A DNA stretch of 64,000 nt from Thiotrichales bacterium. Its GTDB lineage: Bacteria; Pseudomonadota; Gammaproteobacteria; Francisellales; CACEW01. The stretch is from NCBI GenBank assembly GCA_947478175.1, contig CANJUQ010000007.1:10364-74363 (forward strand), read 5' to 3'. The first letter of the stretch is position 1; each line of letters starts with the position of its first letter. Of this stretch, positions 5,883 through 33,412 are shown in pieces. The notes beneath the pieces are model-generated. The model did not search any database. It had not been told where the DNA came from and saw nothing but the letters and a program-made list of their open reading frames with translations. A program made the position numbers and the translations under genes.

Positions 5883-6464
5883 TCAAACACACTCTATTTC
5901 AGGACTCTTCCATTTAATATTGCAACCCAAACTAGGTTTTTGATTTTGTGAGATAGGCTGATGTGTGAGCACACAATCTAAAGCTTGAGTTAAGTCTTTC
6001 CCTGTAGGTTCTATGCCATTGCCAGGGCGGGCGTCATCAAACTGGCCTCGATAGATGCACTGGAGATTATGATCGAAGATATAAAAATCCGGCGTACACG
6101 CGGCTTGATAGGCTTTAGCGACTTCCTGGGTTTCATCGAATAGATATGAAAATGGATAGTTAAAATCTTTGACATCTTGAGCCATATTTTCAGGAGAATC
6201 TTCTGGGTATTTTTCAATATCATTACTGCAGAGGGCTATAAATTTAATATTTTGTTTTTGATAAACATGAGCGATTTCTGAAATTTTGGTTTTGATTAAT
6301 TTAACAAATGGGCAGTGATTACTAATAAACATAATGACAGTTGCTATGTCTGATTTTAATTTTAATTCAGACAGGCTTTCATAGTGCCCCGTCACAGGGT
6401 TTAACAAAAAAAAGTCTGGGGCGAGCGTTCCCAAGGGCAGCATATTAGAAAGTGTCTTAGCCAT
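5883..6464 (-). CDS. Thioredoxin-fold protein (AhpC/TSA-like redoxin family)
   Basis: Contains the redoxin-type motif FISNHCPFVK and a conserved CTPDFYIFD region. Length is 193 aa. Confidence 0.75.
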   Translation of the reverse strand: MAKTLSNMLPLGTLAPDFFLLNPVTGHYESLSELKLKSDIATVIMFISNHCPFVKLIKTKISEIAHVYQKQNIKFIALCSNDIEKYPEDSPENMAQDVKDFNYPFSYLFDETQEVAKAYQAACTPDFYIFDHNLQCIYRGQFDDARPGNGIEPTGKDLTQALDCVLTHQPISQNQKPSLGCNIKWKSPEIECV

Positions 6465-6469
6465 GAGGA

Positions 6470-7075
6470 TTAACTCGCATCGGCTGGGATGCTCAGCCAG
6501 GTATTTTGAGTAGTACTGGAATCAGTGCTAGTTGTTGCTGGAGTGGCTGTTGTTGAAACAGTAGTAGAAGTTACCGGGGCAGCAGAAGGGGCAGAAGAGA
6601 TAGAAGAGGGGGGTGAAGCTGCTGGAGTTTGAGTACTGGCAGCAGCAGAGGCAGGCCCTGGAATAGAAACTAGTGTGACGGTTCTATCAATCTCTGTCGA
6701 CAGATCCCAAGGACGCATGTAGCTCAAAGTGATTTGAGTTAAATAAGGGGCATTGTGGAAACAAGGTTGGACTTGAAAAGTAAATACAGCTTTGCCAGGT
6801 GCGCCAGGCATTTGGGGATTGCCAGGAATAAATTGGTAGTTAGTTAGTTTGAAAAAATGGTTATTGGATTGTTTTAAATACCAGCCATAACCCGTTGATG
6901 GATTTGCTGTAAGGTTTAATTCCAATGTGTCTTGATTGGGGGAAATCATAACGGGTTTATTAGCGTTATTTGTTTTATCTGTTTGATTAATTGGCATGGC
7001 TAAAGCAACCAATGGGAATAAGAGCGTTAAGGCTGAGATTTTTAATAGTTGAGATATTAAAGAAGACTTGAGCAT
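6470..7075 (-). CDS. Secreted chagasin-family (I42) cysteine-peptidase inhibitor with an S/T/A/P-rich C-terminal tail
   Basis: Has a signal-like N-terminus, the chagasin motifs NPSTGYGW and MRPWD, and a GAPGKAVFTF loop. The roughly 60-aa C-terminus is low complexity (AAASTQTPAASPPSSISSAPSAAPVTSTT...). Confidence 0.8.
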   Translation of the reverse strand: MLKSSLISQLLKISALTLLFPLVALAMPINQTDKTNNANKPVMISPNQDTLELNLTANPSTGYGWYLKQSNNHFFKLTNYQFIPGNPQMPGAPGKAVFTFQVQPCFHNAPYLTQITLSYMRPWDLSTEIDRTVTLVSIPGPASAAASTQTPAASPPSSISSAPSAAPVTSTTVSTTATPATTSTDSSTTQNTWLSIPADAS

Positions 7076-7262
7076 GGTGATTGTCCTTATTTTAAAATCA
7101 ATATTTTAAGTTTCAAAAATTTAGAAATAGAAAAAATAGGGGCGGAAGTATAACCAGGAAATTTGCTTTGACATCCGTGCAGTATGTAAAAAATTCAAAA
7201 AACAAAAACCAAAAAACGCTTGAATTGGCGAAGCGGCTTCCATACAATCGCGCCTCTTTTCT

Positions 7263-7339
7263 AGGCACGTAGCTCAGTTGGTTAGAGCACCACCTTGACA
7301 TGGTGGGGGTCGTTGGTTCGAATCCAATCGTGCCTACCA
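7263..7339 (+). tRNA. tRNA-Val (anticodon GAC), CCA encoded
   Basis: Folded by hand. The acceptor AGGCACG pairs with CGTGCCT. The anticodon stem is CCACC/GGTGG with loop TTGACAT. The T arm is GTTGG-TTCGAAT-CCAAT. The 3' end is ACCA. Confidence 0.93.
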
Positions 7340-7373
7340 GTTTTTTTATTCAAATAATTTTTTTGAATTTCCC

Positions 7374-7398
7374 GTAGGGGCGAATCTTCTATTCGCCC
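7374..7398. repeat. REP-like palindrome GTAGGGGCGAATCTTCTATTCGCCC
   Basis: Read directly. It differs at one loop position from the copy at 61435-61459. Confidence 0.85.
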
Positions 7399-7486
7399 AA
7401 ATTCCGCTTGGCGAAGATATTGGTTGTGAATATGCCGCCCCTGTTGGGATCCGGATTAACATCAAATCGATTGATTTTCTAAAAAT

Positions 7487-7860
7487 TGATCCAAGATTGC
7501 GGACGGGCGAACACGAGGTTCGCCCCTACACCCTCCCAATTAGAAAGGCTAATTTAACCTCAAATTTCCTTAAGGCAGTGCCATTGATGTCCGGGTTATG
7601 TCCGGGTTATGTCCGGGTTATGTCCGGATTGACGGGATTGACGGGATTGACGGGATTGACGGGATTGACCGGATTATTCTGGCAAGAACCATCGGGTTTT
7701 AGGCCCCTGCATTCCAGTGCTGTCGATGTATTGGATTGATCCAAGAAATGCGACGGGACGAACATGAAGTTCGCCCCTATCCTCCCTATAAGAAAGGCCA
7801 ATTTAACCTCAAATTTCCTTAAGTCCGTACCATTAGACAGGCAGGTCTGCCCCGGTGACA
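7487..7860. repeat. Composite repeat block: two ~100-bp direct repeats, each carrying a REP hairpin, with an 11-bp and a 9-bp tandem array between them
   Basis: DR1 is about 7487-7585 and DR2 about 7737-7834. Both read TTGATCCAAGA..GCGACGGG(C/A)CGAAC..GTTCGCCCCTA..AGAAAGGC.AATTTAACCTCAAATTTCCTTAAG. TGTCCGGGTTA occurs about 3.7 times (7588-7627). GATTGACGG occurs about 5 times (7627-7675). Confidence 0.85.
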
Positions 7861-8065
7861 TCCAATTGATTAAAATTTGTGAATGAGATCGCGGGAATGT
7901 GGGTAATAAAGGACTGCCATGTTTTATTGTATTATATAAATATCTTTAATTTTTAATTGAATATTTTGAAAAAACCATAGCAATCTTGCGGTTTCTTTTG
8001 TTTAATGCCGACTGTTCTGTTTATAAACAAGAATAAAAAATAAATATAAAAATGGAGATTGAATA

Positions 8066-8565: not shown

Positions 8566-9336
8566 ATGAAAAAAATTATTTTAATTACGGGTGCGACTAG
8601 CGGGATTGGTCAGGCTTTGGCTGAGAAGTTAGCTGAGAAATTAGGCCCCGATTGTTACTTGATTTTATTAGCCCGAAGAAAAGAAAGATTAGAAAAATTA
8701 TCTGAGCAATTAAAAAATAAATTTAGCGCTCGTGTTTGTTTAATCGAAGCAGATGTTAGAAAGAAAAATCTAATAGAAAAAACGCTGAATGAGTTGCCTA
8801 AAGAATTTAAAAATATTGATGTCTTAGTGAATAATGCTGGATTGGCTTTATCCAGTGATCCCATTCAAAAAACTAATCCTGATGATTGGGATGTTGTGAT
8901 TGATACTAATTTAAAAGGCCTGCTCTATATGACCCATGCAGTATTACCAGGCATGTTAGAAAGAAACTCTGGGCATATTGTAAACATAGGCTCAGTGGCG
9001 GGGCATTTAAATTATCCCGGTGGGAATATTTATGCGGCAACGAAGCATGCGGTTAGGTCTTTAAGTCAAAGTTTAAGAATGGATTTACTGGGGACAAATC
9101 TGCGGGTGACGGATATTGCGCCCGGGGCGGTTCAGACAGAATTTTCAGAAGTTCGTTGGAAAGATAAAGCCAGGTCAGATGCTTTTTATGCGCAGTTCAC
9201 GCCGTTACAACCGGAAGATATTGCTGATGCGATTTGTTATGCAATTTCTTGTCCAGCTCATGTAAATATTGCTGAATTGGTAATTTATCCAACGCACCAG
9301 GCATCGCCGAATCATATCTATAAACCGTTTGTTTAA
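8566..9336 (+). CDS. SDR-family NADP-dependent oxidoreductase (YdfG-like)
   Basis: Contains TGATSGIG, NNAG and the YAATKHAV catalytic motif. Confidence 0.9.
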   Translation: MKKIILITGATSGIGQALAEKLAEKLGPDCYLILLARRKERLEKLSEQLKNKFSARVCLIEADVRKKNLIEKTLNELPKEFKNIDVLVNNAGLALSSDPIQKTNPDDWDVVIDTNLKGLLYMTHAVLPGMLERNSGHIVNIGSVAGHLNYPGGNIYAATKHAVRSLSQSLRMDLLGTNLRVTDIAPGAVQTEFSEVRWKDKARSDAFYAQFTPLQPEDIADAICYAISCPAHVNIAELVIYPTHQASPNHIYKPFV

Positions 9337-9356
9337 TGAGGTAGCTCTGCTAGTAT

Positions 9357-9374
9357 CTGACTAGACTGACTAGA
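9357..9374 (+). promoter_or_regulatory. Direct repeat CTGACTAGA x2 upstream of vapB (candidate antitoxin operator)
   Basis: A tandem 9-bp repeat lies about 25 nt upstream of the antitoxin start. The function is inferred only. Confidence 0.25.
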
Positions 9375-9400
9375 TTTAGCAATTATGAGGATATGTGCTC

Positions 9401-9652
9401 ATGGAATTAACACAATGGCAGCTTCAAAAAGCAAAAGCGCAATTTTCAGAGGTGATTAGATTGGCGAGAGAAGAGCCTCAAGAAATCATGTTAAGAGGAA
9501 AATCGGAAGCAGTCATTATCTCTAAAGAATTTTTTGATGCGTTGACTCAAAAGCCTGATTTTCTAGAATTCATGCGCTCTTCGCCATTATGTGGTGTGGA
9601 ATTAAATCTCGAGCGAGATAAATCCAAAATTCGTCGTCAGGTAAAATTATGA
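9401..9652 (+). CDS. vapB: Type II antitoxin, Phd/YefM-type VapB
   Basis: The pattern W.LQKAKAQFSEVIRLA...PQEI..RGK..AVIIS is typical of Phd/YefM antitoxins. There is a 4-bp ATGA overlap with the PIN toxin gene. Confidence 0.85.
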   Translation: MELTQWQLQKAKAQFSEVIRLAREEPQEIMLRGKSEAVIISKEFFDALTQKPDFLEFMRSSPLCGVELNLERDKSKIRRQVKL

Positions 9653-10062
9653 AATATTTAATCGATACCAATATTCTTTCAGAGTTAGTTAAGAAAAAAC
9701 CGGACCAACAAGTAATTCAGTGGTTTCAAAAGGGCTTAGATTCTTCGCTTTATTTAAGTGCCCTTACTTTGGGGGAGTTACGTAAAGGGATTGATTTATT
9801 GCCTCAATCAAAACGACGCCAAGAACTAGCCCATTGGCTTGAAAAAGATTTAGCAGATTGGTTTTGGAAGAGGATTCTCCCAATTGATGCAGTCGTAGCT
9901 GAATGCTGGGGGGCATTATTAGCTAAGGCAGATCGGCCGTTGTCAGCTATTGATAGTCTGATTGCTGCAACGGCTGTTTATAATGGGTGTACTTTAGTGA
10001 CCCGAAATACAAAAGATTTCAAGTCGTTCGAGACGTTAAAATTAATCAATCCATTTGAATAA
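9649..10062 (+). CDS. vapC: Type II toxin VapC (PIN-domain ribonuclease)
   Basis: Contains MKYLIDTNILSEL, a conserved D (IDSLIAATA) and LVTRNTKDF. Length is 137 aa. Confidence 0.9.
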   Translation: MKYLIDTNILSELVKKKPDQQVIQWFQKGLDSSLYLSALTLGELRKGIDLLPQSKRRQELAHWLEKDLADWFWKRILPIDAVVAECWGALLAKADRPLSAIDSLIAATAVYNGCTLVTRNTKDFKSFETLKLINPFE

Positions 10063-11238
10063 TTAGTTTTGATTTTCCCAGGCAATCATCCCGCCCGTTA
10101 AATTATAAACCTGAGTAAACCCTGCCTGAATAGAGCTCACCCCAGCCCGTTGGCTTCGTCCGCCTGATTTGCAATAAATAACGAGAGGCTGATTTTTATC
10201 AAGAGCAGAAAGTTGAGAAGATTCTGCTGTTAAAAATTCTAAAAAATTATTTAAGGGTATATGTATGCTGGGTTTGATATAGCTGATATCCCGTTCCCAA
10301 TTTTCTCGGACATCTAATAATTGAAAATTTTTATTCTCTTTATTCTCTTTATTTTTAGAGAGCCATTGAGAAAGTTGTTCAATGGTTATTGGGATTGGGT
10401 TATGTGAATTTAAATTATTTAAGTCGCATGTTTTAAAACTAGTTTGATCAAATCTATTTAATTCAGAAAATTTTTGATGATGAGAACAAATAGGACAATC
10501 TGGATTGGTTTCTAAAAGATAAGTATCTAATTTTGGAATCAAAGTGTCGTAAAGAATTAACTGAGATTTTGATTCTGGGAAATTTAAAATAATTTTAAAA
10601 GCTTCGCTGACGGCCATGGTTGCAAGAATACCGGGGACGACGCCTAAGACACCGGCCATTGCGCAGTTGGGGATGAGTTCTGGAGGGGGCGGGGCTGGAT
10701 ATAAACAGCGATAGCAGGCCTGAGTATTGGAAAGATTATTTTTAAAATTAAAAACAGCAATTTGGCCAGAGAATTGAAAAATACTGGCAGAAATTAGAGG
10801 GATCTTGAGTTCAGCACAGACATCGTTAGTGAGATATCTGGTTGGATAATTATCTGAGCCGTCAATCACTAGATCATAATTTTTAAAAATAGAGTGAGCG
10901 TTCAGAGGGGTTAATCTAATAGGGTGAGAAGAAATTTTAATATGGGGATTCTGAAGGGTTAGATGACTCAAAGCAGTGTCTGCTTTGGATTTTCCAAGAT
11001 CAGAAGTTTTATAAAGAATTTGTCTTTGTAGATTGGACAGATCAACGCAGTCGTCATCTAATATTCCCAAATGACCCATTCCGGCTGCTGCAAGATAAAA
11101 GGCGGCAGGTGAACCAATGCCACCTGCGCCGATTAAAAGAACTGAGCTGGCTTTCAGTTTTTCCTGACCTGAAAGTCCAATACGCTCTACGGCAAAATGC
11201 CTGGCATAGCGTTGTAATTCTTCCTGAGTAAACGCCAT
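10063..11238 (-). CDS. MoeB/ThiF-family E1-like adenylyltransferase fused to a C-terminal rhodanese domain (MoeZ/Uba4 type)
   Basis: Contains GAGGIGS (nucleotide loop), CYRC and CPIC (Zn site), NCAMAGVLG (catalytic Cys region) and the rhodanese loop YCKSGGRS. I prefer the start at MAFTQEELQRYARH (11238), which is preceded by GGAGG; the track start is 11268. It also contains an NKENKENK in-frame repeat. Confidence 0.9.
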   Translation of the reverse strand: MAFTQEELQRYARHFAVERIGLSGQEKLKASSVLLIGAGGIGSPAAFYLAAAGMGHLGILDDDCVDLSNLQRQILYKTSDLGKSKADTALSHLTLQNPHIKISSHPIRLTPLNAHSIFKNYDLVIDGSDNYPTRYLTNDVCAELKIPLISASIFQFSGQIAVFNFKNNLSNTQACYRCLYPAPPPPELIPNCAMAGVLGVVPGILATMAVSEAFKIILNFPESKSQLILYDTLIPKLDTYLLETNPDCPICSHHQKFSELNRFDQTSFKTCDLNNLNSHNPIPITIEQLSQWLSKNKENKENKNFQLLDVRENWERDISYIKPSIHIPLNNFLEFLTAESSQLSALDKNQPLVIYCKSGGRSQRAGVSSIQAGFTQVYNLTGGMIAWENQN

Positions 11239-11242
11239 TCCA

Positions 11243-11515
11243 TTACCCTCCTGAAACAGCAGCGACAAGATCGATCTTGCTTTCTGCTGTTAATAAAACC
11301 GGTTGATCTAATTTACTAGAGATCAACTGGCCATCTAAGTATAAATTTACAAATCCACAAAGCTTTCCGCTGGGTGTGAACACAATGGAGTGCAATTGGG
11401 GAACAACCTTCAAAAGTGAGCGTGATAATTGAGGGAGAGAATGGATCTCAATAACCAGCTCACTTTGTCCGGCGGTAAATTTCAAAAGGGCTTCTGGAAT
11501 CCTGACAATAGCCAT
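11243..11515 (-). CDS. ThiS/MoaD-family ubiquitin-like sulfur-carrier protein (C-terminal ...VSGG)
   Basis: A 90-aa protein ending in Gly-Gly directly before the stop, with a MoaD/CysO-like pattern (VNLYLDG..., IDLVAAVSGG). It lies 4 nt upstream of the E1 gene. Confidence 0.8.
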   Translation of the reverse strand: MAIVRIPEALLKFTAGQSELVIEIHSLPQLSRSLLKVVPQLHSIVFTPSGKLCGFVNLYLDGQLISSKLDQPVLLTAESKIDLVAAVSGG

Positions 11516-11531
11516 AACAAATTGACCGATC

Positions 11532-11612
11532 TTACAGAAGTGCTGCTGCAGTCAAAGAGACAAAGTTGTCATCATGAGCGACTGAGTTCAAAGCGATTGT
11601 ATGTAATTTCAT
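11532..11612 (-). CDS. Candidate 26-aa small ORF (MKLHTIALNSVAHDDNFVSLTAAALL)
   Basis: Not in the ORF track because it is too short; I read it by hand. GGAGG lies 6 nt upstream of the ATG. It sits 18 nt after the stop of the 447-aa ORF and 16 nt before the carrier-protein start. Confidence 0.45.
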   Translation of the reverse strand: MKLHTIALNSVAHDDNFVSLTAAALL

Positions 11613-11630
11613 AGTAAACCTCCGGTTATA

Positions 11631-12974
11631 TTAATTGTTACTGGTCGAGCGAACACGAATGCAGCCATTAAAGAAAATCGATTTCTCGGGAAAGTCGAGT
11701 AACTTTTCTGATGCAAACTTGCCCGCAAGCTTGAGAAAACGTTTGTCGTCTCGAGCAAGCTGACCAATGTCACTGATAATCCCATTTTCATTCGAGTGCG
11801 GATGAAAATAGTCAAATTCCACGTCTTTGAGCATTTTGTAGAGCGCCGTTCCTTTAAGCGAAATCGGCAATTGTTGTGAGAGCACCTTTTCTTTGAAGAG
11901 CCCTATGATCTCCTTAATTTCCTTTAGTTCTAGGATCGTTTTATTATTGCTCGCATTCTTTTGAGGAATGGAGTGAAGGAAAGTGTGTTTCTGTAGAGAA
12001 TAATAAATTGGCTTTAAATCATCATAAAAGCCTAGCTGCATGAAAAGCGGCCAGTAATAACGAATTCGGTAAACTTCTATGAGCGCTTTCATAAAACCAG
12101 AAATAGGACCGGCCATTTCAGTCACGCAAGGGGTATAAGCCGGTGCCTGTTTTAAGGCGACTTTTAAAACATGTTTAACGGTCTCTATGACAGGTGCAGA
12201 ATTTCTAATAGCTAGAGACAGAGAATCTTCCATGAAAATAGAAAAGACGAGATCATAAAATTGATAATTTCGGCTGAAAGCTGTTGCATCCCAGGCATAA
12301 TCAAGTAGGGTTTTTCTGAGTTTATGCGCCTCTTCCAAGGCGTCGACAAACTCTTTTGAAAAAAGCATGAGTTCGCATTCCCATTGACTACGGAAAGACT
12401 TGGATTCTGAGAGGGCTTTAAATAATTCCCATTGTTCTGAAAGTTCTTTAGGGCAAATAACGGTTGGAAGATGAAAGCGCTTACTTAAACGAGCGCTGTA
12501 TTGAAGATGTGCAATCGAAGGTAAAGTAATCAGTGAGCGACAGCCAGCTGTTGCTGATTGAGCTCCGACAATATGATGCGATGCGCCTTTTTCTTCAAAA
12601 ATAGTTAAAAGAGAAAAAGTGTTGCCAGCTTGTAAAAGTCTAAGCGGAATAGTGTGAGAAGGAATATCAACATGGGATTCAAACGTATTGTGTAAGACCA
12701 TGCCGAATGGAATTCCCATCCAGGTGTAATCTAATAATTCGCGAATTTCATGAGGAATGGCGCTGTTTTTATAATTCACAAAATCGCCATCGATATTTAA
12801 ATAAAATAAACCTTTGCGAATAATCGGTGCACCAAACGGATAAGTAGCAACGATGACTTTGAAATTCTCGACGCCTTTGATGGTGTCGATCTCACCACAG
12901 ATAGAGGGGTTGAGCGAGATGGCTTTCTCGCGAACTTCTTTCCAGGGCAGAATTTTGACGGTGTTACTATTCAT
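11631..12974 (-). CDS. Hypothetical 447-aa protein with no recognisable motif
   Basis: A long ORF. The preferred start, MNSNTVKILPWKEV, overlaps the stop of the upstream MFS gene by 8 nt (CATGAATAG). I see no P-loop, CxxxCxxC, HExxH or obvious PLP motif. Confidence 0.7.
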   Translation of the reverse strand: MNSNTVKILPWKEVREKAISLNPSICGEIDTIKGVENFKVIVATYPFGAPIIRKGLFYLNIDGDFVNYKNSAIPHEIRELLDYTWMGIPFGMVLHNTFESHVDIPSHTIPLRLLQAGNTFSLLTIFEEKGASHHIVGAQSATAGCRSLITLPSIAHLQYSARLSKRFHLPTVICPKELSEQWELFKALSESKSFRSQWECELMLFSKEFVDALEEAHKLRKTLLDYAWDATAFSRNYQFYDLVFSIFMEDSLSLAIRNSAPVIETVKHVLKVALKQAPAYTPCVTEMAGPISGFMKALIEVYRIRYYWPLFMQLGFYDDLKPIYYSLQKHTFLHSIPQKNASNNKTILELKEIKEIIGLFKEKVLSQQLPISLKGTALYKMLKDVEFDYFHPHSNENGIISDIGQLARDDKRFLKLAGKFASEKLLDFPEKSIFFNGCIRVRSTSNN

Positions 12975-14397
12975 GAGAACTACCGTGGTTATCATCATTC
13001 CGGCTTGAATAGTGCATCCAGAGTGTGATGGCACCCATTAAGATAAAGGCGACGAAAAAGGCACAGCCTTGGATCGCACAAAGGGGGATTTCACCTAACC
13101 AAGCAGGCACTGAAGAAGTCCCTGTTGTCATGGAGATAACATAGTAACCAATGACTAAGCCAGCAGCGCTACAAAGTTGCATGAGGCCTGAGTAATAACG
13201 TAATTCAGAAGGGTGTTTTGCTAATGAAATCATTTGAGAAATAAGCGCTGGCGCGAGTAAAAATTCACCGGCTCCAAACATCAGGATGACCATGATTACA
13301 TAGATGCTGGAAATATGTTGAAAGTTTTCACTGAGCAGTGACCCAACAATGGGAAGTAAAAACGCGATGCCTAGAACAAAAGTGCCTATTAAGAGATAAG
13401 AGTTGCTGGGAAGAAGTCTTTGCAAGTATTTGACAATTAATGTCCCCATTAAAATATTAGCGACAGGATCGAAGATATAGAAAAACAGGGAGGGCATTCT
13501 AGCGCCCCAGCCCGCAGAGATACCTGAGTGGCTAATAAAAACGCCAAAGCTGACAAAGAGAACGACGATAGAGGCGGTATAACAAAGATTGCCAATCGAA
13601 GTTGATAATAATTTTAGAGAATCTCTTGAGCTGAGTTTTCCGAAGATAAATTCCCAAGAAAAAAATAACACAAAAGAGCTGAGAATGATCAGACGGGCTA
13701 AAAAAGCTTCCGTCAAAAGAGAAAAGACAGAGATTGCCATAAGAATAATAATAGCGGGTAACCATAATGGACTTTTGAGCGACGTTGTTCCTTCAGCAGG
13801 GCTTATTTCAACAAATGAACGCTTGTGGGTTTCTATTAGGTGCAGTGAAAACAAAATGGAAATACAGCTTAATAAATAGAGTACTGGATATTCTGCAGAA
13901 GGAAGCAGCTGTGAAAGAAAAGCAGACAACCATGAACCGATTAATAATCCTAGAAGTGCACCTGAATTAAGATAAAGAGCGATTTTTTGATTGAAATAGG
14001 TGCGTGTTTTATCGTCATTGGCATAAGCATTGGTAAGTGCTTGGAAATTGACTAGGTAAAGGCTAATTCCAGTAACGTACAGAGCAATGCCTATCAAGAT
14101 GGCTATTTCAAAATAACAAAGTGTTGAAATAATAAAAGTACCAACGACTGCCATAAACCCCCCAATCATGACTAATTTGGCATGAGCTGGGGCAGGGATT
14201 TTTCTCAAAATAAAACCCCAAAAGAAACCACAAAGAACTTGCAAGGCAAATGCTGAGGTGACAATTGTAAAGCTTGTATCGAGTGAAAGATGATTTTGAG
14301 AAAGAAATAAGGCAAGTGAGTACCTGATTGAAATGTAACCAACCATCATCATGGCGGCGTGAAGCATGAATGTTTTTAAGCTTTTTGGAGTTTCCAT
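12967..14397 (-). CDS. MFS-type polytopic membrane transporter
   Basis: A 476-aa protein with about 12-14 hydrophobic segments along its whole length. It is the first gene of the five-ORF minus-strand cluster. Confidence 0.75.
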   Translation of the reverse strand: METPKSLKTFMLHAAMMMVGYISIRYSLALFLSQNHLSLDTSFTIVTSAFALQVLCGFFWGFILRKIPAPAHAKLVMIGGFMAVVGTFIISTLCYFEIAILIGIALYVTGISLYLVNFQALTNAYANDDKTRTYFNQKIALYLNSGALLGLLIGSWLSAFLSQLLPSAEYPVLYLLSCISILFSLHLIETHKRSFVEISPAEGTTSLKSPLWLPAIIILMAISVFSLLTEAFLARLIILSSFVLFFSWEFIFGKLSSRDSLKLLSTSIGNLCYTASIVVLFVSFGVFISHSGISAGWGARMPSLFFYIFDPVANILMGTLIVKYLQRLLPSNSYLLIGTFVLGIAFLLPIVGSLLSENFQHISSIYVIMVILMFGAGEFLLAPALISQMISLAKHPSELRYYSGLMQLCSAAGLVIGYYVISMTTGTSSVPAWLGEIPLCAIQGCAFFVAFILMGAITLWMHYSSRNDDNHGSSHE

Positions 14398-14624
14398 CGT
14401 TCGGTACTCTCATTCCATTGATATCGTAAAAATGAATGTCATAAGACATTTAATTCAATAAAACATATTGGTTTAAATGTTAAATTCGGGTGGACTTTAA
14501 CCGAAGAAAAAAACTGTTACAACAGCGCACGCAATTTTTTTTTTAAAAATCTTTGTGTCATCGGGTTTTTATTTTTTTGATGTTAAACATCTATTCTAAA
14601 ATTTTATTTAGCGACCCCATTCGC

Positions 14625-15704
14625 TCATAAAATTACGCCACCGCCCAAGCAAATATTCTCTTGGTATAAAACCACTGATTGACCCGGTGTAATAGCCCTC
14701 TGGGGGATTTCAAAAACAATATGGGCTTGCGAATTTTTAATTAAAACCTGGCAAGACTGATCGACTTGGCGATATCGGGTTTTAGCTTTGGCAGCAAAAC
14801 GCGTGCCATCTTTTGGAGAGATTCCGCTAATCCAAGTCAGTTGAGAGGCGATGAGATTATTAGAAAGTAAAAGCGGGTGATCATGATCTTGTACGCAGAT
14901 CAATTGATTGTTCTGGACATCTTTGCGAGCGACATACCAGGGAGATTCTTTAGCGTTTTTTACGCCTCCAATATGTAATCCAGAGCGCTGCCCTAGGGTG
15001 TAATACATGAGGCCATCATGTTGGCCAATGATTTGGTTTTTATCATTAATAATAGAGCCGGGTTGGTGGGGTAAATATTTTGATAAAAATTCTTTGAATC
15101 TTTTCTCACCAATAAAACAAATGCCTGTTGAATCTTTTTTTTCAAAAGTGATTAATCCTGCTTTTTGGGCGATTTTTCTGACTTCTGTTTTTTCTAAGTG
15201 GCCAATAGGAAAAATAGATTTCTGTAAGGCTTGCTGTGAAATGGCATATAAAAAATAAGACTGATCTTTATTAGAATCCAAGCCTTTTAATAATCTGGAA
15301 AGACCATTGGATAAATCTAGATCTATCCGGGTGTAATGACCCGTTGCGATATATTCAAAATCAAGAGACTGGGCAAAATCTAAGAAGGCCTTAAATTTAA
15401 TTTCGCGATTGCACAGAATATCTGGATTGGGGGTTCTATAGGCTTGGTATTCAGCTAGAAAATATTCAAAGACATGATCCCAGTATTCACTGGCAAAATT
15501 AATGGTCAATAGAGGAATATTTAATTTATCTGCGATGGCTTGAGCGTCTTTTAGATCTTGAGCAGCAGCGCAATAACTATCCGTATCATCTTCTTCCCAG
15601 TTTTTCATAAAACAAGCTGTGACGTCATGGCCTTGTTCTTTGAGTAATAAAGCACTGACCGAAGAATCAACGCCACCGGAGAGACCAACGAGGATACGAG
15701 CCAT
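14625..15704 (-). CDS. mnmA: tRNA-specific 2-thiouridylase MnmA
   Basis: Contains the [13 protein letters not shown]-loop, ATGHY, KDQSYFL and STGICFIGE motifs. The start is taken at [11 protein letters not shown]; the track ORF extends to 15782. Confidence 0.95.
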
Positions 15705-15879
15705 ATCTAAAAACCTGTTTGTATATTTATTTTTAATTTTAAAAAAGATCAAAATTGTCTCAAAGGATGGGGTGATTAACAATTTTTATAAATTTTTTTA
15801 GTTGTCATGTCAGAAGTGATTGATCCGCATGATACTGATCTCTATGATTCGCACCAACGAGTTTGGCGGAGTTAATAAG

Positions 15880-17469
15880 ATGGACAAGTTTCTAAGGTGG
15901 CTGTGCTTTTATCTAGTTGCCTATGCTAATTTGACCTTAGGAAAAACCACTTCAGAGAAGTCCTATGAAAAAGATTTACAACTCGGATCAAGCGAAGGAA
16001 ATTTAAGTAAACCACTCTTGTGCCATGCCTTATCTGATGGCTTTATTGAATTGATATCTCAAGCAGCCTTAACGAGTCAATATGATTATTTAGAACCCTT
16101 TTTAACTGATCTTAAATTGTCTCAAAGTCTTTTTCTTCCTACTCTGAACGGCATGAGTATTAAAAAAGATAACATTATTGTGAGGGTTGGCATCTGCGAC
16201 TCATTGTCAAAACTGTACAACCTAGTGGACAACAGTGAAATTTTAAACTTAATCGATTTTTTGAAGCGAAAAAGAGCCGATTCAAATTTAAAACCATCAC
16301 ACAAACAATTGGCCATGCTTTCTTTTCTATTGAATGAACCTGGCATGGGTTTAAGCCCCTCTATTGCGATGCTTTCAGAAAAAAAAACCGACAAAGTTTT
16401 TAAATTAAGACTAAGAAATGGTGGTCTTCTATCAGCAAAATCCTCTGCAAAGATGACAAAAACCATGATTGAAAAAATTGAAGATGCGAAATTAATTTAT
16501 GTGGGGGACTCTACAGGCTTATCTAACTATGTTCTAACCCTTCCAAAAGGCGTTTACACGCTCTCAATGGGAGCTCCGATTTTTCACACGGTATCATTAC
16601 AAGTAAATGACGACCAAAGAATTAGATTTTTTGATCCCTCAAGCGGCACAATCAATGCCACACCCAATGAATACTTTGCCTCTCTGAATAAACATTTTAA
16701 AACAACTTTATTTAGGTGTGATTTAACAGGCTACGGTAATGCGGCAAGGTCAATCCCGCTGCAATTAGCACTTACTCCATGGGCCGGTTCATTGCTTACT
16801 GCTATTAATGCTCAAGATCTAGAGGGCATTGAACAGATATTGGCTGCAGCCCCTCAACTACTCACTGCCCCTGACCTTTCAGCCCCACCCGTTCATGCTG
16901 CCGTTGCACGTGAAAAATTAGATTCACTACGCTGTTTAGTTGAAAATGGTGCAGATCCTAATACTTTTGATGCAAATGGAAAAACGCCGCTGATCTTTTC
17001 GTTAGTGGAAAAAAAGCCGTTTTTTGTTGTACAAGCATTAATAGAATGTGGCGCAGATCCCAACTTAAGTGATCGGTTGGGACATGTGCCTCTTCTTTTA
17101 GTTGTTTCATCAAAAGATTCTTCCGTAGAAGTGGTCAATGCTTTGCTTAATGTTGGCGCCGACCCTCTTGTAAAAGATCGCGAAGATTCGCCATTAATCG
17201 GCATTGCTATTGCCTATGCTTCACCGGAGATCGTGGCAAGATTACTACAAGATCCAAGGGTCGATCCTAATATGAAAATTACCGTCAAAAGCCGCACTAG
17301 AGGGCGTGTGGCTGTTTCCTTATTAGAGATTGCAAAACAGTTTAAAAGAGAAGATTTAGTAGATGTTATTAAAGCATCTCAAAAAAACAGAAAAACTGGT
17401 TCTTTTGTTTTTGCTCCAGGTACTAGGTCCAGAACATCAATAGAATCCGAAGCCACCGCAGAGGTTTAA
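15880..17469 (+). CDS. Effector-like protein: putative YopT-like (peptidase C58) Cys-protease domain plus C-terminal ankyrin repeats
   Basis: GICDSLSKLY is the candidate Cys. FHTVSLQV..RIRFFDPSSG supplies His and Asp 16 residues apart. Ankyrin repeats are present (APPVHAAVAREKLDSLRCLVENGADPN, GKTPLIFS, ECGADPNLSDRLGHVPLL, LLNVGADPLV). The start is taken at MDKF; the track start is 15820. Confidence 0.6.
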   Translation: MDKFLRWLCFYLVAYANLTLGKTTSEKSYEKDLQLGSSEGNLSKPLLCHALSDGFIELISQAALTSQYDYLEPFLTDLKLSQSLFLPTLNGMSIKKDNIIVRVGICDSLSKLYNLVDNSEILNLIDFLKRKRADSNLKPSHKQLAMLSFLLNEPGMGLSPSIAMLSEKKTDKVFKLRLRNGGLLSAKSSAKMTKTMIEKIEDAKLIYVGDSTGLSNYVLTLPKGVYTLSMGAPIFHTVSLQVNDDQRIRFFDPSSGTINATPNEYFASLNKHFKTTLFRCDLTGYGNAARSIPLQLALTPWAGSLLTAINAQDLEGIEQILAAAPQLLTAPDLSAPPVHAAVAREKLDSLRCLVENGADPNTFDANGKTPLIFSLVEKKPFFVVQALIECGADPNLSDRLGHVPLLLVVSSKDSSVEVVNALLNVGADPLVKDREDSPLIGIAIAYASPEIVARLLQDPRVDPNMKITVKSRTRGRVAVSLLEIAKQFKREDLVDVIKASQKNRKTGSFVFAPGTRSRTSIESEATAEV

Positions 17470-19205: not shown

Positions 19206-22200
19206 TTGGACTGCATGACAGAGAGACGTATTTTTGCGGGTGATTGTGGCTTAGAAATTGATCAAATAGATTTCCGCGCGGTTGATATTGTATTAACCCT
19301 TCAAGATGCTGGTTTCGAGGCCTATATCGTTGGTGGTGGCGTTCGGGATTTGTTATTAGGGAAAAACCCTAAAGATTTTGATATTGCGACCAGCGCTCAC
19401 CCAGAAGAAATTCGAAGTTTATTTAAAAATTGCCGTTTGATTGGTCGACGTTTTCGATTGGCGCATATTTTTTTTAGAAATCATATTATCGAAGTCGCGA
19501 CTTTTAGGGGCGATCATACTCAAGCAGATCATGAAGGTCTGGGAAGTACTCATGAGTCAGGTTTAATTTTAAGAGATAACGTTTTTGGGACGCTCGAAGA
19601 AGATGCCTGTCGGCGTGATTTTACGATCAATGCCTTGTATTACGATCCGGCTTCTGAAGAAATTTTAGATTTTACGGGTGGAATTGACGATCTTTATTCC
19701 AGAACATTGCGTTTGATCGGCGATCCTGAAAAACGGTTCCATGAAGACCCCGTGAGATTATTACGAGCAGCAAGATTTGTAGGAAAATTGGGATTGACAG
19801 TTGAGCCTAAAACTGCAGCAGCGATGGGCCTTGCTAAAAATTTATTGCAGCAGGCTTCGCCTTCGCGTTTATTTGATGAATATTCCAAATTTTTCTTGCA
19901 TGGCCATGCAACTGAAGTTTTTGAAGCATTGGGGTCTTTTGGGTTATTAAATTTTTTATTTCCCCATATCGATTCTAATAGCCAAGATCTTAATATTCAG
20001 AAGATGACGCACCAGGCTTTATTAAATACAGATGCTCGGATCGCCGAAGGAAAGTCTCTCAATCCTGCTTTTTTATTAGCTGTGTTTTTATGGCATCCCA
20101 TGCAAGAAAAACAGCGTGAATATCTGGCTCAATCCAATGCTCCTTATGATGCTTATTTACAAGCGACTAATACGGTTTTATCTGAGCAAGTAAATTGTCT
20201 GGCGATTCCAAAAAGACTGACTCAGACCATTCGAGAAATTTGGTATTTGCAGCATTTACTAGAACGTCGTCGCCCTCGCCAAGTCTTAACTTTATTGCAT
20301 CATAAAAGATTTAGAGCCGCGTATGATTTTTTACTATTGCGATCTGAAATAGGCGAAGTGCCTGTTGAACTCGCTGAATGGTGGACCGTATTTCAGACTT
20401 TAACGATTGCTCAGCAGAAAGAATGGATTCGGGGTTTGAATTCTGCCAAGAAACATTCAGAAAAAAATTCAGAAAAAAATATAGATTTTTTGGATCTAGT
20501 AGGGGAGGGCGGTGGGCTGCCCTCAAATAACGATGAAAATGGCAGCCAGAATGATGGAAAGGACAGTGCCCCTACAGAAGATGTTATGGCAGATTCCAAT
20601 GATTCTAAAAACTCTAAGAACTATGAATCTTTATGGTCACAGCTGTCTGGATTAGCTAAAAAACATAGAACACCCGCTATAAAAACTTTATTTCAAGAAG
20701 ACTGGGATCGTTTTATTAAATTTTCAGTGGAAGGTGCGGGAATTTTTTTAGATTTTTCTAAAAATAGAATCACAGATGAAAGTTTTAATTTATTAATAGA
20801 ACTGGCCCATGAATCTAATTTGGCTGAAAAGATTGACCAATTATTTTCTGGAGACTGGGTTAATAATACGGAAAAAAGACCGGCGCTTCATATGGCCTGT
20901 CGCGCTAAAGGACTCCTAGAAGAAGGTTTCCCAGAAGAAGGTTTCCCAGAAGAAGTCATTGAGAAAGTTCTGGCAGAAAAATCCAAGATGCGGGAATTTG
21001 TTTCACGGGTTCATTCGGGTCAATGGACCGGTGAGACAGGCGAGAGAATTACAGATATTGTAAATCTGGGCATTGGAGGTTCTGATTTGGGGCCCCATAT
21101 GGTTATTGATGCATTGAGAGCTGATTGGACAGGGCATCTCAAAGCTCATTTTGTGTCCAATATTGATGGCGCTGCGTTAGAGCAAGTTTTAAATCAATTA
21201 GATCCCACCAAGACTTTATTTATTTTGGCCTCTAAATCTTTTTCGACGCAAGAGACTTTGCAAAATGCTAAAACGGCTCGAGATTGGCTAGTTAAAAAAT
21301 TAGGCCCTAAAGCCACAGAAAAACACTTTATAGCCATTACTTCTAAGCCAAAACTGGCTGAACAGTTTGGCATGAAAGCTAGCTCTTGTTTTGAAATGTG
21401 GGATTTTGTGGGGGGTCGTTATTCACTCTGGTCTGCTATTGGATTACCCATTGCTTTGATGATTGGCATGGATAATTTTGAGCAATTATTATCTGGCGCT
21501 CGAGCGATGGATCAGCATTTTAAAGACAGTGATTTTAATCAAAATCTGCCAGTGATTCTTGCCATGTTAGGTGTCTGGTACAGAAATCTTTGGAACTTTG
21601 AAACTCATGCTGTTTTGCCTTATGACGACCGTCTGGGTTTATTCCCTAGTTATTTGCAGCAACTTGATATGGAATCCAATGGCAAGCGGGTGTCTCAATC
21701 AGGAAAAACTTTACATTGGCAAACCGGGCCTGTTATTTGGGGCGGTGTTGGGACGAATGGTCAGCACGCGTTTCACCAGTTATTACATCAGGGAACCAGC
21801 GTGATTCCTGCGGATTTTATTTTGGTTAAAACTCCCCATCATCATTTAAAAGACCATCATGAAATTTTGTTATCCCATGGGCTTGCTCAAATGCAAGCGC
21901 TTATGAATGGCAAGACAGAAGATGAAGCGTATCGAGAGTTGGTTGATTCTGGAATGAATCCATCAGAGGCGCAAACTCTGGCACCGCATAAAGTAATTAT
22001 TGGAAATAAACCCTGTAATGCGATTGTTTTAAACAAATTAACGCCTGAAGCTTTGGGGGCTCTAATAGCGCTGTATGAACATAAAGTATTTGTTCAAAGT
22101 GTGATTTGGGGGATTAATCCTTTTGATCAGTGGGGTGTCGAACTAGGAAAGCAATTAGCGGGGCCGTTATTAAAATCTTTGCATGATAAAAAATCTGAGG

Positions 22201-22247
22201 ATTTTGATGCATCGACTAATGGTTTGATTCGAAGATTGATTTTTTAA
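19206..22247 (+). CDS. pcnB-pgi: Single 1013-aa ORF fusing poly(A) polymerase I (PcnB, ~aa 1-400) to glucose-6-phosphate isomerase (Pgi, ~aa 470-1013) through a low-complexity repeat linker
   Basis: The PcnB half has GGGVRDLLLGKNPKDFDIAT and RLIGRRFRLAHIFF. The Pgi half has DFSKNRIT, NTEKRPALHMACR, GIGGSDLGP, SKSFSTQET and ESNGK. No in-frame stop separates the two halves. An in-frame ATG lies at 20586. Confidence 0.85.
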   Translation: MDCMTERRIFAGDCGLEIDQIDFRAVDIVLTLQDAGFEAYIVGGGVRDLLLGKNPKDFDIATSAHPEEIRSLFKNCRLIGRRFRLAHIFFRNHIIEVATFRGDHTQADHEGLGSTHESGLILRDNVFGTLEEDACRRDFTINALYYDPASEEILDFTGGIDDLYSRTLRLIGDPEKRFHEDPVRLLRAARFVGKLGLTVEPKTAAAMGLAKNLLQQASPSRLFDEYSKFFLHGHATEVFEALGSFGLLNFLFPHIDSNSQDLNIQKMTHQALLNTDARIAEGKSLNPAFLLAVFLWHPMQEKQREYLAQSNAPYDAYLQATNTVLSEQVNCLAIPKRLTQTIREIWYLQHLLERRRPRQVLTLLHHKRFRAAYDFLLLRSEIGEVPVELAEWWTVFQTLTIAQQKEWIRGLNSAKKHSEKNSEKNIDFLDLVGEGGGLPSNNDENGSQNDGKDSAPTEDVMADSNDSKNSKNYESLWSQLSGLAKKHRTPAIKTLFQEDWDRFIKFSVEGAGIFLDFSKNRITDESFNLLIELAHESNLAEKIDQLFSGDWVNNTEKRPALHMACRAKGLLEEGFPEEGFPEEVIEKVLAEKSKMREFVSRVHSGQWTGETGERITDIVNLGIGGSDLGPHMVIDALRADWTGHLKAHFVSNIDGAALEQVLNQLDPTKTLFILASKSFSTQETLQNAKTARDWLVKKLGPKATEKHFIAITSKPKLAEQFGMKASSCFEMWDFVGGRYSLWSAIGLPIALMIGMDNFEQLLSGARAMDQHFKDSDFNQNLPVILAMLGVWYRNLWNFETHAVLPYDDRLGLFPSYLQQLDMESNGKRVSQSGKTLHWQTGPVIWGGVGTNGQHAFHQLLHQGTSVIPADFILVKTPHHHLKDHHEILLSHGLAQMQALMNGKTEDEAYRELVDSGMNPSEAQTLAPHKVIIGNKPCNAIVLNKLTPEALGALIALYEHKVFVQSVIWGINPFDQWGVELGKQLAGPLLKSLHDKKSEDFDASTNGLIRRLIF

Positions 22248-31914: not shown

Positions 31915-32565
31915 TTATTTAGAATCCCGGTGCAAAAGATCCATAGAGACTTGGATCACAATAGGCAGTAATGAAATAAAAATAACGGCCAAAATAACGA
32001 CGGAAAAATAATGTTGAACCCAAGAAAGATTCCCAAAAAAATATCCTAACCCAGTCACTAAACCAATCCAGAAAACAGCTGCGATAAAACTAATCATCAA
32101 AAATTTTGGATAAGCCATTTGGCCAATCCCAGCGACAAAGGGCGCAAAAGTTCGAATGATGGGAATAAAGCGTGCGAGAATTAAAGTTCTAGTGCCATAT
32201 TTTTGATAAAACTGATGGGTTCTCTCAAGATGTTTATGACTCAGCCATTTGTTTTTATTTTGATTATTTTGATCATGAAAAATACGAGGACCTAAGAGCC
32301 GTCCTAGCCAATAATTTAAATTATCACCCAAGAAAGCCGCCAGAATTAATAAACAAATCAGTCCAAAAAGTTTAATAGGCCCTTGATGGTCTGAAGCTAA
32401 TAAAGCCCCTAGAGAAAACAATAAAGAATCACCTGGTAAGAATGGTGTGATAACTAAGCCTGTTTCGAGAAAAATAATTAAAAATAAAAACGCGTAGGCA
32501 TAAAAACCATAGTGATTTAAAAACGGCCCTAAATAGAGATTTAGGTGGAGAAGGGTGTGGAGCAT
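31915..32565 (-). CDS. DedA-family inner-membrane protein
   Basis: Contains PFLPGDSLLF and the ARFIPIIRTFAPFVAG motif. Confidence 0.88.
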   Translation of the reverse strand: MLHTLLHLNLYLGPFLNHYGFYAYAFLFLIIFLETGLVITPFLPGDSLLFSLGALLASDHQGPIKLFGLICLLILAAFLGDNLNYWLGRLLGPRIFHDQNNQNKNKWLSHKHLERTHQFYQKYGTRTLILARFIPIIRTFAPFVAGIGQMAYPKFLMISFIAAVFWIGLVTGLGYFFGNLSWVQHYFSVVILAVIFISLLPIVIQVSMDLLHRDSK

Positions 32566-32569
32566 ATTT

Positions 32570-33412
32570 TTATAACAAACCTAATTCCCGAAGTCTTTCC
32601 ATTAAATAATCTTCCGCTCTGGGATATTGCGGCGACAAATAATCATCGGCATGGGGGTGTAAAAACAACGGCATAGAAATTCTAGCGACGCCGGCTTGTT
32701 CACCTTCAGGTTTAACCACGCGATGAGAGGTCGAAATATAGTAACGGTCTGTCGCTTCTTGGAGCATGTCACCAATGTTGACTATGAGCGATTCTGGATC
32801 GACGGGAACTGCATGCCATTGACCTTTAGAATCCTTCGCTTGAAGACCCGGCTGTGTAGCGGCAGGCAATATAGTAATTAAATTAATATCTTCATGAGCC
32901 GCTGCTCGAATAGCACCGACTTCTTCTTGGCCCGTAATAGGCGGGTAATAAAGAATTCTTTGTAAAGTTCTTTCGCGGCAAATCATATCTTTTAAAGGTT
33001 TTTTGAGTTTTGCTTGGATTTCTTTAGGTAAATTATCTTCGATCCAGCCGAGTAGCTCTCCAGCCAGTGCAAACGCTTCTTCAAAGACTTCAGCGGTCAC
33101 TGACGAAAGGGTTCTGGGATAACGACCCCAGGGATAATACACATGATAAAATTCTTTAATATCTTTATAGACTTCGCCTTTAGCGATTTCAGAAAGACTG
33201 CTAGGGACATAGCCATCCTGTTTTTTCTTATCAAACGGATATTCAAATCTGACAGGGCTATTAAAAAATTCGCGCCATTCAGAATAAACTTTTTCAATTT
33301 TTGACCAAGGAAGCGGATGATTTCGTAATACGGCAAAACCGGTTTCACTGAGAGATTTAGCAAAGTCGTGCTTGGCTGCGGGGCTACGGTAATCAACGCT
33401 CAGAACTTCCAT
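32570..33412 (-). CDS. 2-oxoglutarate/Fe(II)-dependent oxygenase (isopenicillin-N-synthase-like family)
   Basis: Contains the facial triad HEDINLITIL ... STSHRV and the GDML..ATDRYY pattern. Length is 280 aa. Confidence 0.75.
   Translation of the reverse strand: MEVLSVDYRSPAAKHDFAKSLSETGFAVLRNHPLPWSKIEKVYSEWREFFNSPVRFEYPFDKKKQDGYVPSSLSEIAKGEVYKDIKEFYHVYYPWGRYPRTLSSVTAEVFEEAFALAGELLGWIEDNLPKEIQAKLKKPLKDMICRERTLQRILYYPPITGQEEVGAIRAAAHEDINLITILPAATQPGLQAKDSKGQWHAVPVDPESLIVNIGDMLQEATDRYYISTSHRVVKPEGEQAGVARISMPLFLHPHADDYLSPQYPRAEDYLMERLRELGLL

Follow-up and report, generated by a model that had tools for sequence, protein, structure and literature searches.

Pairs of a beta-grasp sulfur carrier and an activating E1 enzyme serve several thiocarboxylate pathways, such as those of CysO/MoeZ (cysteine synthesis in M. 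tuberculosis), QbsE/QbsC and the PdtH/F type. Where sulfide is not abundant in the habitat, thioamide-forming YcaO enzymes tend to rely on a ThiS homologue in its thiocarboxylate form together with the hydrolase TfuA, according to two reports (PMC13063428, PMC9574740, citing Liu et al. 2021). The ycaO-tfuA pair is needed for thioamidation of McrA, and its loci often lie beside rhodanese and molybdopterin-type genes (Nayak et al. 2017, PMC5589413); MoeB is found in some TfuA clusters (PMC8120280). The delivery of sulfide equivalents to thioamide-forming YcaOs in Pseudomonadota is described as an open question in PMC13063428. Here we analyzed 64,000 nt of contig CANJUQ010000007.1 from a Thiotrichales bacterium (the window), in which five consecutive minus-strand genes encode a transporter, a 447-aa protein (p447), a 26-aa open reading frame (ORF), a 90-aa predicted sulfur carrier and an E1-rhodanese fusion. 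Judging from gene neighborhoods, we hold it moderately probable that these genes form one half of a YcaO/TfuA-type pathway for peptide backbone thioamidation, namely the half that provides sulfur, substrate and transport, in a cluster resembling those for peptides that are made by the ribosome and modified post-translationally (RiPPs).

The five genes are closely packed (Table 1). The transporter and p447 genes overlap by 8 nt (ATGAATAG), and spacers of 18 nt (with GGAGG), 16 nt and 4 nt precede the 26-aa ORF, the carrier gene and the E1 gene, respectively. The five ORFs, their overlap, gaps and motifs are as listed in the first-pass annotation of this DNA, with exactly matching coordinates. 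When about 50 loci with p447 relatives were compared, their neighbors being mapped by tblastn and clustering, the order transporter-p447-small ORF-carrier-E1 was found again in L047, L005/L033, L032, L048, L049 and L050 (at least eight distinct genomes). The co-occurrence of carrier, E1, p447 and transporter genes, which the first-pass annotation had suggested checking, is thus conserved and, as far as gene order can tell, the recurrence of the five-gene order is far beyond chance. Within the window clade (window, L047, L005/L033 and L032; p447 80-88% identical) only the five genes are in common and the flanks differ, with era in L047, an SDR gene in L005 and VapBC in the window. In L048, L049 and L050, whose p447 proteins are 65-68% identical to that of the window, the same five genes are followed by YcaO and TfuA genes, all on one strand and the latter two overlapping by 4 nt in their coordinates. 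A convergent gene for a second POT/MFS-type transporter follows TfuA; it matched Pfam PTR2 in L049 (and in L051, see below) and MFS_1 only in L048 and L050, where it was POT-like by tblastn.

More distant relatives have the same components in other arrangements. L010 shows an MFS-p447 pair convergent with a small ORF-ThiS-YcaO-TfuA operon, with MoeZ divergent; in L008, ATP-grasp and p447 genes precede TfuA/YcaO, and a ThiS-MoeZ-POT operon is also present; and L016 contains MFS-p447-small ORF convergent with TfuA/YcaO. The YcaO and TfuA proteins of these distant relatives matched Pfam at 1e-61 and 2.5e-39, respectively. Because YcaO/TfuA genes share an operon or a cluster with this carrier/E1 pair in both sister and distant relatives, the predicted pathway does not appear to be truly orphan. 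The first-pass annotation had proposed an exported, sulfur-modified peptide made via a thiocarboxylate; the YcaO/TfuA synteny and the precursor-like ORF bear out that direction, although the acceptor chemistry had been missed. The ATP-grasp ligase ORF of L008 stands in the transporter's place and overlaps the start of the p447 ORF, a hint that some forms of the cluster involve additional peptide ligation.

The E1 protein matched Pfam ThiF (1.4e-73, residues 11-249) and Rhodanese (7.7e-18, residues 297-389). The intact GxGxxG motif (GAGGIG), the two CxxC zinc pairs (CYRC and CPIC) and the rhodanese loop CKSGGRS, all noted before, are legible in the translation. Its best NCBIfam models were MoeB/MoeZ, with bit scores of 366 (equivalog cut-off 449) for PRK08762 (MoeB), 314 (633) for PRK07411 (MoeB) and 311 (647) for PRK07878 (MoeZ). 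By these matches the protein belongs to the MoeB/MoeZ/ThiF superfamily, and no named equivalog can be assigned, as the scores stay under every cut-off. The carrier alone reached Pfam ThiS only at E=0.034 (15.1 bits, gathering score 22.5) and NCBIfam SAMP1 at 1.4e-5. A profile of nine orthologues matched the M. acetivorans SAMP1 homologue (4e-6), M. tuberculosis CysO (3e-5) and a ThiS/MoaD family protein (2.9e-4) in the PDB, and the C-terminal SGG is invariant across the nine. On the basis of this profile the 90-aa protein is predicted to be a MoaD/CysO/SAMP1-like beta-grasp sulfur carrier. Both parts of a sulfide-equivalent donor set, a GG-ended ThiS-type carrier and an activating E1, are present in the window. 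The nearest homologues of the E1 among 5.8 billion proteins lie overwhelmingly on contigs of exactly the same size as a contig with a YcaO match (at least 15 equal-size contig pairs among about 55 top E1 matches, three of them checked by sequence). This co-localization argues that the window-type E1 lineage is a dedicated partner of YcaO/TfuA and not a generic MoeB.

The MoeB/MoeZ models, the profile matches to CysO and SAMP1 and the position of mnmA, the gene for tRNA 2-thiouridine synthase, which lies directly upstream on the same strand in the window and also adjoins the cluster in L047, could instead indicate a housekeeping carrier/E1 pair (MoaD/MoeB, CysO/MoeZ or TtuB/TtuC-like, perhaps mnmA-related) whose adjacency to p447 and the transporter is meaningless. 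We regard this as improbable. All E1 scores are under the equivalog cut-offs, the closest E1 homologues co-localize with YcaO, and the five-gene order is kept despite different flanks, with spacers of only 4-18 nt in the window. The genes moaA/C/E, thiG (thiamin), cysM (cysteine), ttuA and those for JAMM proteins are not adjacent to the pair, as the first-pass annotation had remarked of the usual acceptor-pathway genes, and the translated or scanned ORFs of the 64-kb window include none of them. The mnmA gene is not adjacent to the cluster in L005, L032 and L048-L050, and its place next to the cluster is therefore probably local synteny. A functional tie to mnmA was rejected, as the adjacency is not kept beyond L047 among the cluster loci; in L019 mnmA adjoins a stand-alone p447 gene in a different arrangement.

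A Urm1/SAMP-like conjugation system, in which the E1 would attach the GG carrier to lysines of p447 or of other proteins, had been offered as a second explanation and seems to us the least probable of all. The best single-sequence NCBIfam match of the carrier is SAMP1, the E1 resembles the SAMP-activating UbaA and its adenylation domain resembles defense-system E1-E2 proteins, but all these similarity scores are sub-threshold. Neither an E2 domain nor a JAMM isopeptidase nor any target signature is present in the cluster. Fusion to a rhodanese domain speaks for thiocarboxylation, the sister-locus operons include TfuA, which acts on ThiS thiocarboxylate, and the closest E1s are those found with YcaO. 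As for p447 as the conjugation target, most of its family occurs without carrier or E1.

Homologous ORFs of 24-27 aa, with Shine-Dalgarno sequence and ATG kept, occupy the position of the 26-aa ORF in L047, L005/L033, L032, L048, L049 and L050. This gives seven distinct versions counting that of the window, three of which stand upstream of YcaO-TfuA in the operon (L048-L050). Positions M1, K2, I6 and L8 and an S/A-L-S/T-A motif are constant; the N-terminal two thirds are conserved and the final 1-5 residues variable, as is usual for the leader and core of RiPP precursors. The spacer 3' of the ORF ranges from 15 to 198 nt across the loci. By this conservation the 26-aa ORF is a real, conserved gene for a precursor-like peptide, the presumed substrate of YcaO. 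The distant p447 clade has small ORFs of another family, acidic and 27-36 aa long (MQDD..., with a shared ..KIS/KID motif), which adjoin p447, YcaO or ThiS genes and probably encode the precursors of that clade. Near the stand-alone p447 genes no small-peptide families were found.

The transporter had been annotated as an MFS protein, a label that needed correction. As a single sequence it matched Pfam MFS_1 only at E=0.011, under the gathering score. A profile of seven orthologues matched E. coli DtpB over its full length at 4.6e-14 and a second peptide transporter in the PDB at 5.8e-13. Because the orthologue profile matches DtpB and the single sequence is under the Pfam thresholds, we call it a divergent POT-like permease, a probable distant relative of the POT/PTR2 di-/tripeptide permeases. 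The single sequence has no Pfam PTR2 match, and the canonical ExxER motif of transmembrane helix 1 is not recognizable in it by eye. L048 and L049 likewise show an 8-nt overlap between transporter and p447 genes, which suggests translational coupling of the two.

Across the four loci without YcaO, the ratio of nonsynonymous to synonymous substitution rates (dN/dS) was lowest for p447 (0.05-0.07), which makes it the most conserved member of the unit, followed by the carrier (0.10-0.12), the transporter (0.08-0.15) and the E1 (0.13-0.15); dS was saturated in this comparison, and all five ORFs are intact in these four divergent genomes. Clear purifying selection on four proteins makes decay of the window version unlikely. 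Two catalytic genes are missing at the locus, and a toxin-antitoxin pair that abuts the E1 stop codon suggests rearrangement, so one might think of non-functional leftovers of a YcaO/TfuA deletion. In view of the low dN/dS values and of the conserved Shine-Dalgarno sequence and start of the small ORF, we consider such a decaying remnant very unlikely.

A candidate for the missing half is locus L051 (ENA ERZ27277814, contig k141_4269323), which contains a helix-turn-helix (HTH) gene, YcaO (P0199), TfuA and a convergent PTR2 gene, without precursor, carrier, E1 and p447. Its gene set is the exact complement of that of the window. YcaO P0199 is 66% identical to the YcaO of L048. In sequencing run ERR3761214, L055 (100% identical to the window) and L052 (99.5% identical to L051) occur together. 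The tetranucleotide correlation of the YcaO-TfuA-POT segment of L051 with the window was 0.959, compared with a median of 0.958 for the window's own 4-kb chunks and with 0.785 and 0.733 for the orthologous segments of L048 and L050. Moreover, a YcaO subclade (P0199, P0206, P0212, P0198 and P0207) mirrors the E1 clade of the window, and the window-clade E1 P0304 seems to lie on the same 5089-bp contig as YcaO P0206, judged by equal size only. From the co-occurrence in one run, the matching composition and the congruent YcaO and E1 clades, we favor a split cluster, in which YcaO and TfuA of the window organism would be encoded at a second locus of the L051 type and act in trans.

At each of the two points where the cluster is presumed to have been split, a toxin-antitoxin pair lies exactly at the break. 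In the window this is a PIN/VapC-like gene with a small upstream ORF (VapBC), whose end abuts the E1 stop codon, and in L051 and L052 Gp49/HigB-like and HTH genes lie directly upstream of the lone YcaO. The first 8 kb of L051 contain mevalonate-pathway and polyprenyl synthase genes and correlate with the window at r=0.80, whereas the adjacent YcaO segment reaches r=0.96, which suggests that the block was acquired horizontally. Mevalonate genes and an EPSP synthase gene also adjoin the cluster in L050.

Alternatively, the window clade may have lost YcaO and TfuA altogether, and the carrier thiocarboxylate would be used on the 26-aa peptide or another substrate by p447, as a new sulfur-transfer or tailoring enzyme, or spontaneously. 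The absence of YcaO/TfuA at the locus in four genomes, with five intact genes under purifying selection, would fit this picture, as would the fact that the split left the carrier and E1 genes beside those for p447 and the peptide and not beside YcaO/TfuA. In addition, no gene of the unit is more conserved than p447, and no PDB fold matches its C-terminal domain. We nevertheless consider such a YcaO-independent derivative unlikely. In the sister lineages p447 coexists with YcaO/TfuA and is thus not their replacement, carrier and E1 genes are missing in the vicinity of most p447 homologues, and a compatible YcaO-TfuA locus without its own carrier, E1 and precursor is present in the same run.

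Returning to the thioamidation pathway, its steps can be sketched as follows. The MoeZ-like E1 would adenylate the C-terminal Gly-Gly of the carrier, and its rhodanese domain, loaded with persulfide by a cysteine desulfurase, would turn the acyl-adenylate into the carrier thiocarboxylate. TfuA would hydrolyze the thiocarboxylate beside YcaO. With ATP, YcaO would activate an amide in the backbone of the 26-aa peptide, the oxygen of which would be replaced by sulfide. p447 might then perform a further step, either processing or tailoring of the peptide or its handover to the transporter, and the POT-like permease would carry the short, peptide-sized product across the inner membrane. Each of these chemical steps is inferred, as are the part played by p447 and the transport direction.

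Several observations weigh against this pathway. By tblastn with queries from L010 and L008, no YcaO or TfuA was found in the 64-kb window, and the flanks of the cluster in L047, L005/L033 and L032 lack them as well over about 10 kb each way. The link between L051 and the window relies on one run, on composition and on congruent identity patterns, with no shared contig or bin, and the tetranucleotide correlation of the whole of L051 with the window is lower, at 0.934. The small peptide, with about 25 codons, shows weaker constraint (dN/dS 0.35-0.7) than the other genes. The homologues of p447 are mostly stand-alone genes without carrier, E1 or the other parts nearby, and its activity therefore does not appear to depend intrinsically on sulfur transfer. 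Finally, product, transcript and thiocarboxylate are predictions from the genes.

p447 had no match in Pfam, NCBIfam or PADLOC, ten distant family members had none in Pfam, and a p447 profile against PDB sequences gave noise only (E>=0.25). In particular, no molybdenum cofactor, thiamin or tRNA-thiolation family was matched; membership in such a family is what the first-pass annotation had named as speaking against its proposal. Its description of p447 as an orphan does not stand. Close relatives comprise 34 cluster representatives among the 5.8 billion proteins, and an exhaustive HMMER search yielded a family of at least 936 representatives (clusters at 50% identity) at E<=1e-3, 323 of them at E<=1e-30, although it is unannotated. 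The AlphaFold2 model has a pLDDT (predicted local distance difference test) of 90.7. Its N-terminal beta-barrel gave weak CRP/cNMP-binding-like Foldseek matches (E about 4e-4, TMq about 0.25), and for the C-terminal 298 aa, modelled separately, Foldseek against the PDB gave no match with E<0.79. E99, Y302, Y324, H391 and D410 are invariant across the family and R146, S326 and C438 nearly so.

The stand-alone p447 genes come from metagenome-assembled genomes (MAGs) labelled Legionellales, Coxiellaceae, Francisellaceae and Thiotrichales and from one Rickettsia endosymbiont MAG. Some of the genes are in tandem, and some genomes have two paralogues. The comparison suggests that p447 in the cluster acts on the peptide itself or connects it with the permease. 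Only tentatively do we propose, beyond the thioamidation pathway itself, that the p447 proteins represent a new class of enzymes for processing or tailoring peptides which, with the carrier/E1/TfuA/YcaO line, turn the 24-27-aa precursor into a very short thioamide peptide for the POT-like permease. It is equally tentative that this would be an undescribed natural-product or signaling pathway of Legionellales-like, probably intracellular bacteria, with the stand-alone paralogues acting on other substrates.

A large p447 clade has a conserved 20-25-aa C-terminal tail (..KPSMKDFL.., in most members also ending ..FRLDDKE), which the cluster-linked p447s lack; in the tandem pairs of several genomes only the downstream copy has it. 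The tail is vaguely like the acidic small ORFs (..SMNKI.., ..GMDKI..), a likeness unsupported by hidden Markov model (HMM) searches. The idea that it is a fused small peptide was dropped, as only a vague SM-K/N-D/K-F/I likeness was seen and the peptide HMMs miss it. Homology of p447 to the long C-terminal extension of the linked TfuA proteins was rejected by hmmsearch and hhalign (probability 0.1).

Table 1. Positions of the features discussed, counted within the window or within the locus named, with the translated small peptides
Feature	Locus	Position	Strand	Remarks
Transporter gene	window	14397-12967	minus	476 aa; first gene of the unit; ORF translation
p447 gene	window	ATG 12974, stop 11631	minus	447 aa; ORF translation
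Small ORF	window	11612-11532	minus	26 aa; own Shine-Dalgarno GGAGG in 11613-11630; MKLHTIALNSVAHDDNFVSLTAAALL
Sulfur-carrier gene	window	11515-11243	minus	90 aa; protein end ...AAVSGG; ORF translation
E1-rhodanese gene	window	ATG 11238, stop 10063	minus	391 aa; ORF translation
Intergenic region mnmA/transporter	window	14398-14624	minus	227 nt; only sizeable gap upstream of the five genes
Sigma-70-like match	window	14561-14534		within the mnmA/transporter gap
mnmA	window	14625-15782	minus	
mnmA	L047	1355-2434		adjoins cluster
mnmA	L019	11418-12479		adjoins stand-alone p447
PIN/VapC-like gene with small upstream ORF (VapBC)	window	9395-10062	plus	abuts E1 stop codon (10063)
Gp49/HigB-like and HTH genes	L051	9460-9789		directly upstream of lone YcaO
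Gp49/HigB-like and HTH genes	L052	1074-1711		directly upstream of lone YcaO
Mevalonate-pathway and polyprenyl synthase genes	L051	1-8000		
ATP-grasp ligase ORF	L008	1673-2866	plus	overlaps p447 ORF start
Small-ORF peptide	L047			MKLHPIVLTQVDNNHFDALTAASW
Small-ORF peptide	L005/L033			MKLYSIALNSELAHDFSSCYAAEMLTC
Small-ORF peptide	L032			MKIHSIVLGSLAGENFEALISAAAITT
Small-ORF peptide	L048			MKNVSIDLSRFISEDVASLSASGWFL
Small-ORF peptide	L049			MKTLNIDLSSGLEQDLASLSAAAMFD
Small-ORF peptide	L050			MKTLTIDLGKNVAQDSQSLSAQQFAV
Acidic small ORF	L008	7488-7571	minus	MQDDLLLDVIFDEDMETAPLGMDKISY
Acidic small ORF	L010	10132-10242	minus	MNNTNLDDIENIHIPDLDEETYFSLSEPKISTEQHL
Acidic small ORF	L016	11496-11606	plus	MQDDAFELIIDDIDESMIGEDYFDAASMNKIDPDSH
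p447 tandem/tail example	L004	6500-9407		
p447 tandem/tail example	L007	28-2667		
p447 tandem/tail example	L036	984-3788		
DedA/VTT and 2OG-Fe(II) oxygenase pair	L002 (also L014)	6407-7967		directly upstream of stand-alone p447
DedA/VTT-domain and 2OG-Fe(II) oxygenase genes	window	31915-33412	minus	
Ankyrin-repeat protein	window	35808-37199	minus	Pfam Ank_2 2e-10
Ankyrin-like protein	window	15820-17469	plus	by reading of the translation only
1013-aa ORF	window	19206-22247	plus	by eye an unusual fusion, or possibly a merged gene call

The gap between mnmA and the transporter gene is the probable promoter region of the five-gene unit. A scan for promoters and terminators found sites no more numerous than in shuffled sequence and was thus uninformative on operon structure; its sigma-70-like match within the gap was overall no better than chance. 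A short hairpin followed by a T-run was read by eye after mnmA. The Rfam scan of positions 9000-16500 found no riboswitch and no leader.

The hosts appear to be Legionellales-like, probably intracellular, gammaproteobacteria. Such a lifestyle is pointed to by the ankyrin proteins in the window and by Dot/Icm genes that adjoin a p447 homologue in L001. Several MAGs with these loci (L005 and L017, both from assembly CAMCUU01) were deposited as 'Francisella tularensis subsp. holarctica', which from gene content and a GC content of about 37% looks like a misassignment. A divergent pair of DedA/VTT and 2-oxoglutarate (2OG)-Fe(II) oxygenase genes lies directly upstream of a stand-alone p447 in L002 and L014, where genes for a UPF0176/rhodanese protein and for a class-V aminotransferase with a cysteine-desulfurase-like fold precede it; DedA/VTT and oxygenase genes adjoin each other elsewhere in the window. 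The window also contains a single 1013-aa ORF whose N-terminal half, read by eye, is of the poly(A) polymerase/CCA-adding type and whose C-terminal half is a glucose-6-phosphate isomerase, an unusual fusion or possibly a merged gene call.

To our knowledge, Legionellales-like bacteria are not known for RiPPs. If our reading is correct, they would have a peptide pathway of the thioamide type whose thiocarboxylate comes from a fully dedicated supply line, and an apparently orphan sulfur-carrier operon would become a testable pathway whose parts are peptide, carrier, E1, YcaO, TfuA, p447 and permease. The logic of sulfur insertion would be a known one, combined with a new precursor family, with a carrier and an E1 of its own, with a POT-like permease and with the uncharacterized p447 family. 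For p447, a sizeable unannotated family for which there is no Pfam model, this would be the first functional context. A biosynthetic cluster split into two loci, each half of which looks orphan, also bears on genome mining, for which YcaO/TfuA adjacency is the usual seed. A dedicated carrier/E1 pair acting in trans may be one possible answer to the question of sulfide supply to the thioamide YcaOs of Pseudomonadota, as posed in PMC13063428.

When compared to known systems, the window shares with CysO/MoeZ, QbsE/QbsC and PdtH/F a GG carrier of about 90 aa encoded directly upstream of a ThiF-rhodanese fusion, but its cluster lacks CysM, Mec/JAMM or an acyl-activating partner. In those pathways sulfur is transferred onto O-phosphoserine or an acyl-adenylate, which is not expected here; as the partner enzymes in the relatives are YcaO/TfuA, the carrier would release its sulfur as sulfide, which would go to a backbone amide. 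The E. coli YcaO that acts on ribosomal protein uL16 is likewise a gammaproteobacterial thioamide-forming enzyme with an open sulfur route in PMC13063428, which describes it as being without TfuA, none being encoded nearby, whereas the cluster-linked YcaOs are TfuA-coupled and have a carrier and an E1 of their own. Thioamidated RiPP clusters (thioviridamide-type thioamitides and thiovarsolins; PMC6511847, PMC8120280) resemble ours in a short precursor beside YcaO-TfuA, a transporter and, in some, MoeB-like genes. They are mainly actinobacterial, with other precursors and other tailoring enzymes, and no described cluster with the p447 family or this peptide family was found in these two surveys. 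The McrA thioglycine system of methanogens differs in that its substrate is a large enzyme, in place of a presumed dedicated peptide of 24-27 aa, and the window locus itself is without YcaO and TfuA; here, the carrier and E1 are dedicated and operonic, with p447 (whose C-terminal domain has no PDB match) and the POT-like permease as integral parts. The McrA system nevertheless shares with the sister loci the YcaO-TfuA pair, the GG-ended beta-grasp carrier and the E1 with rhodanese, and the sulfur route that we propose, from E1 via the carrier thiocarboxylate and TfuA to YcaO, is the published one.

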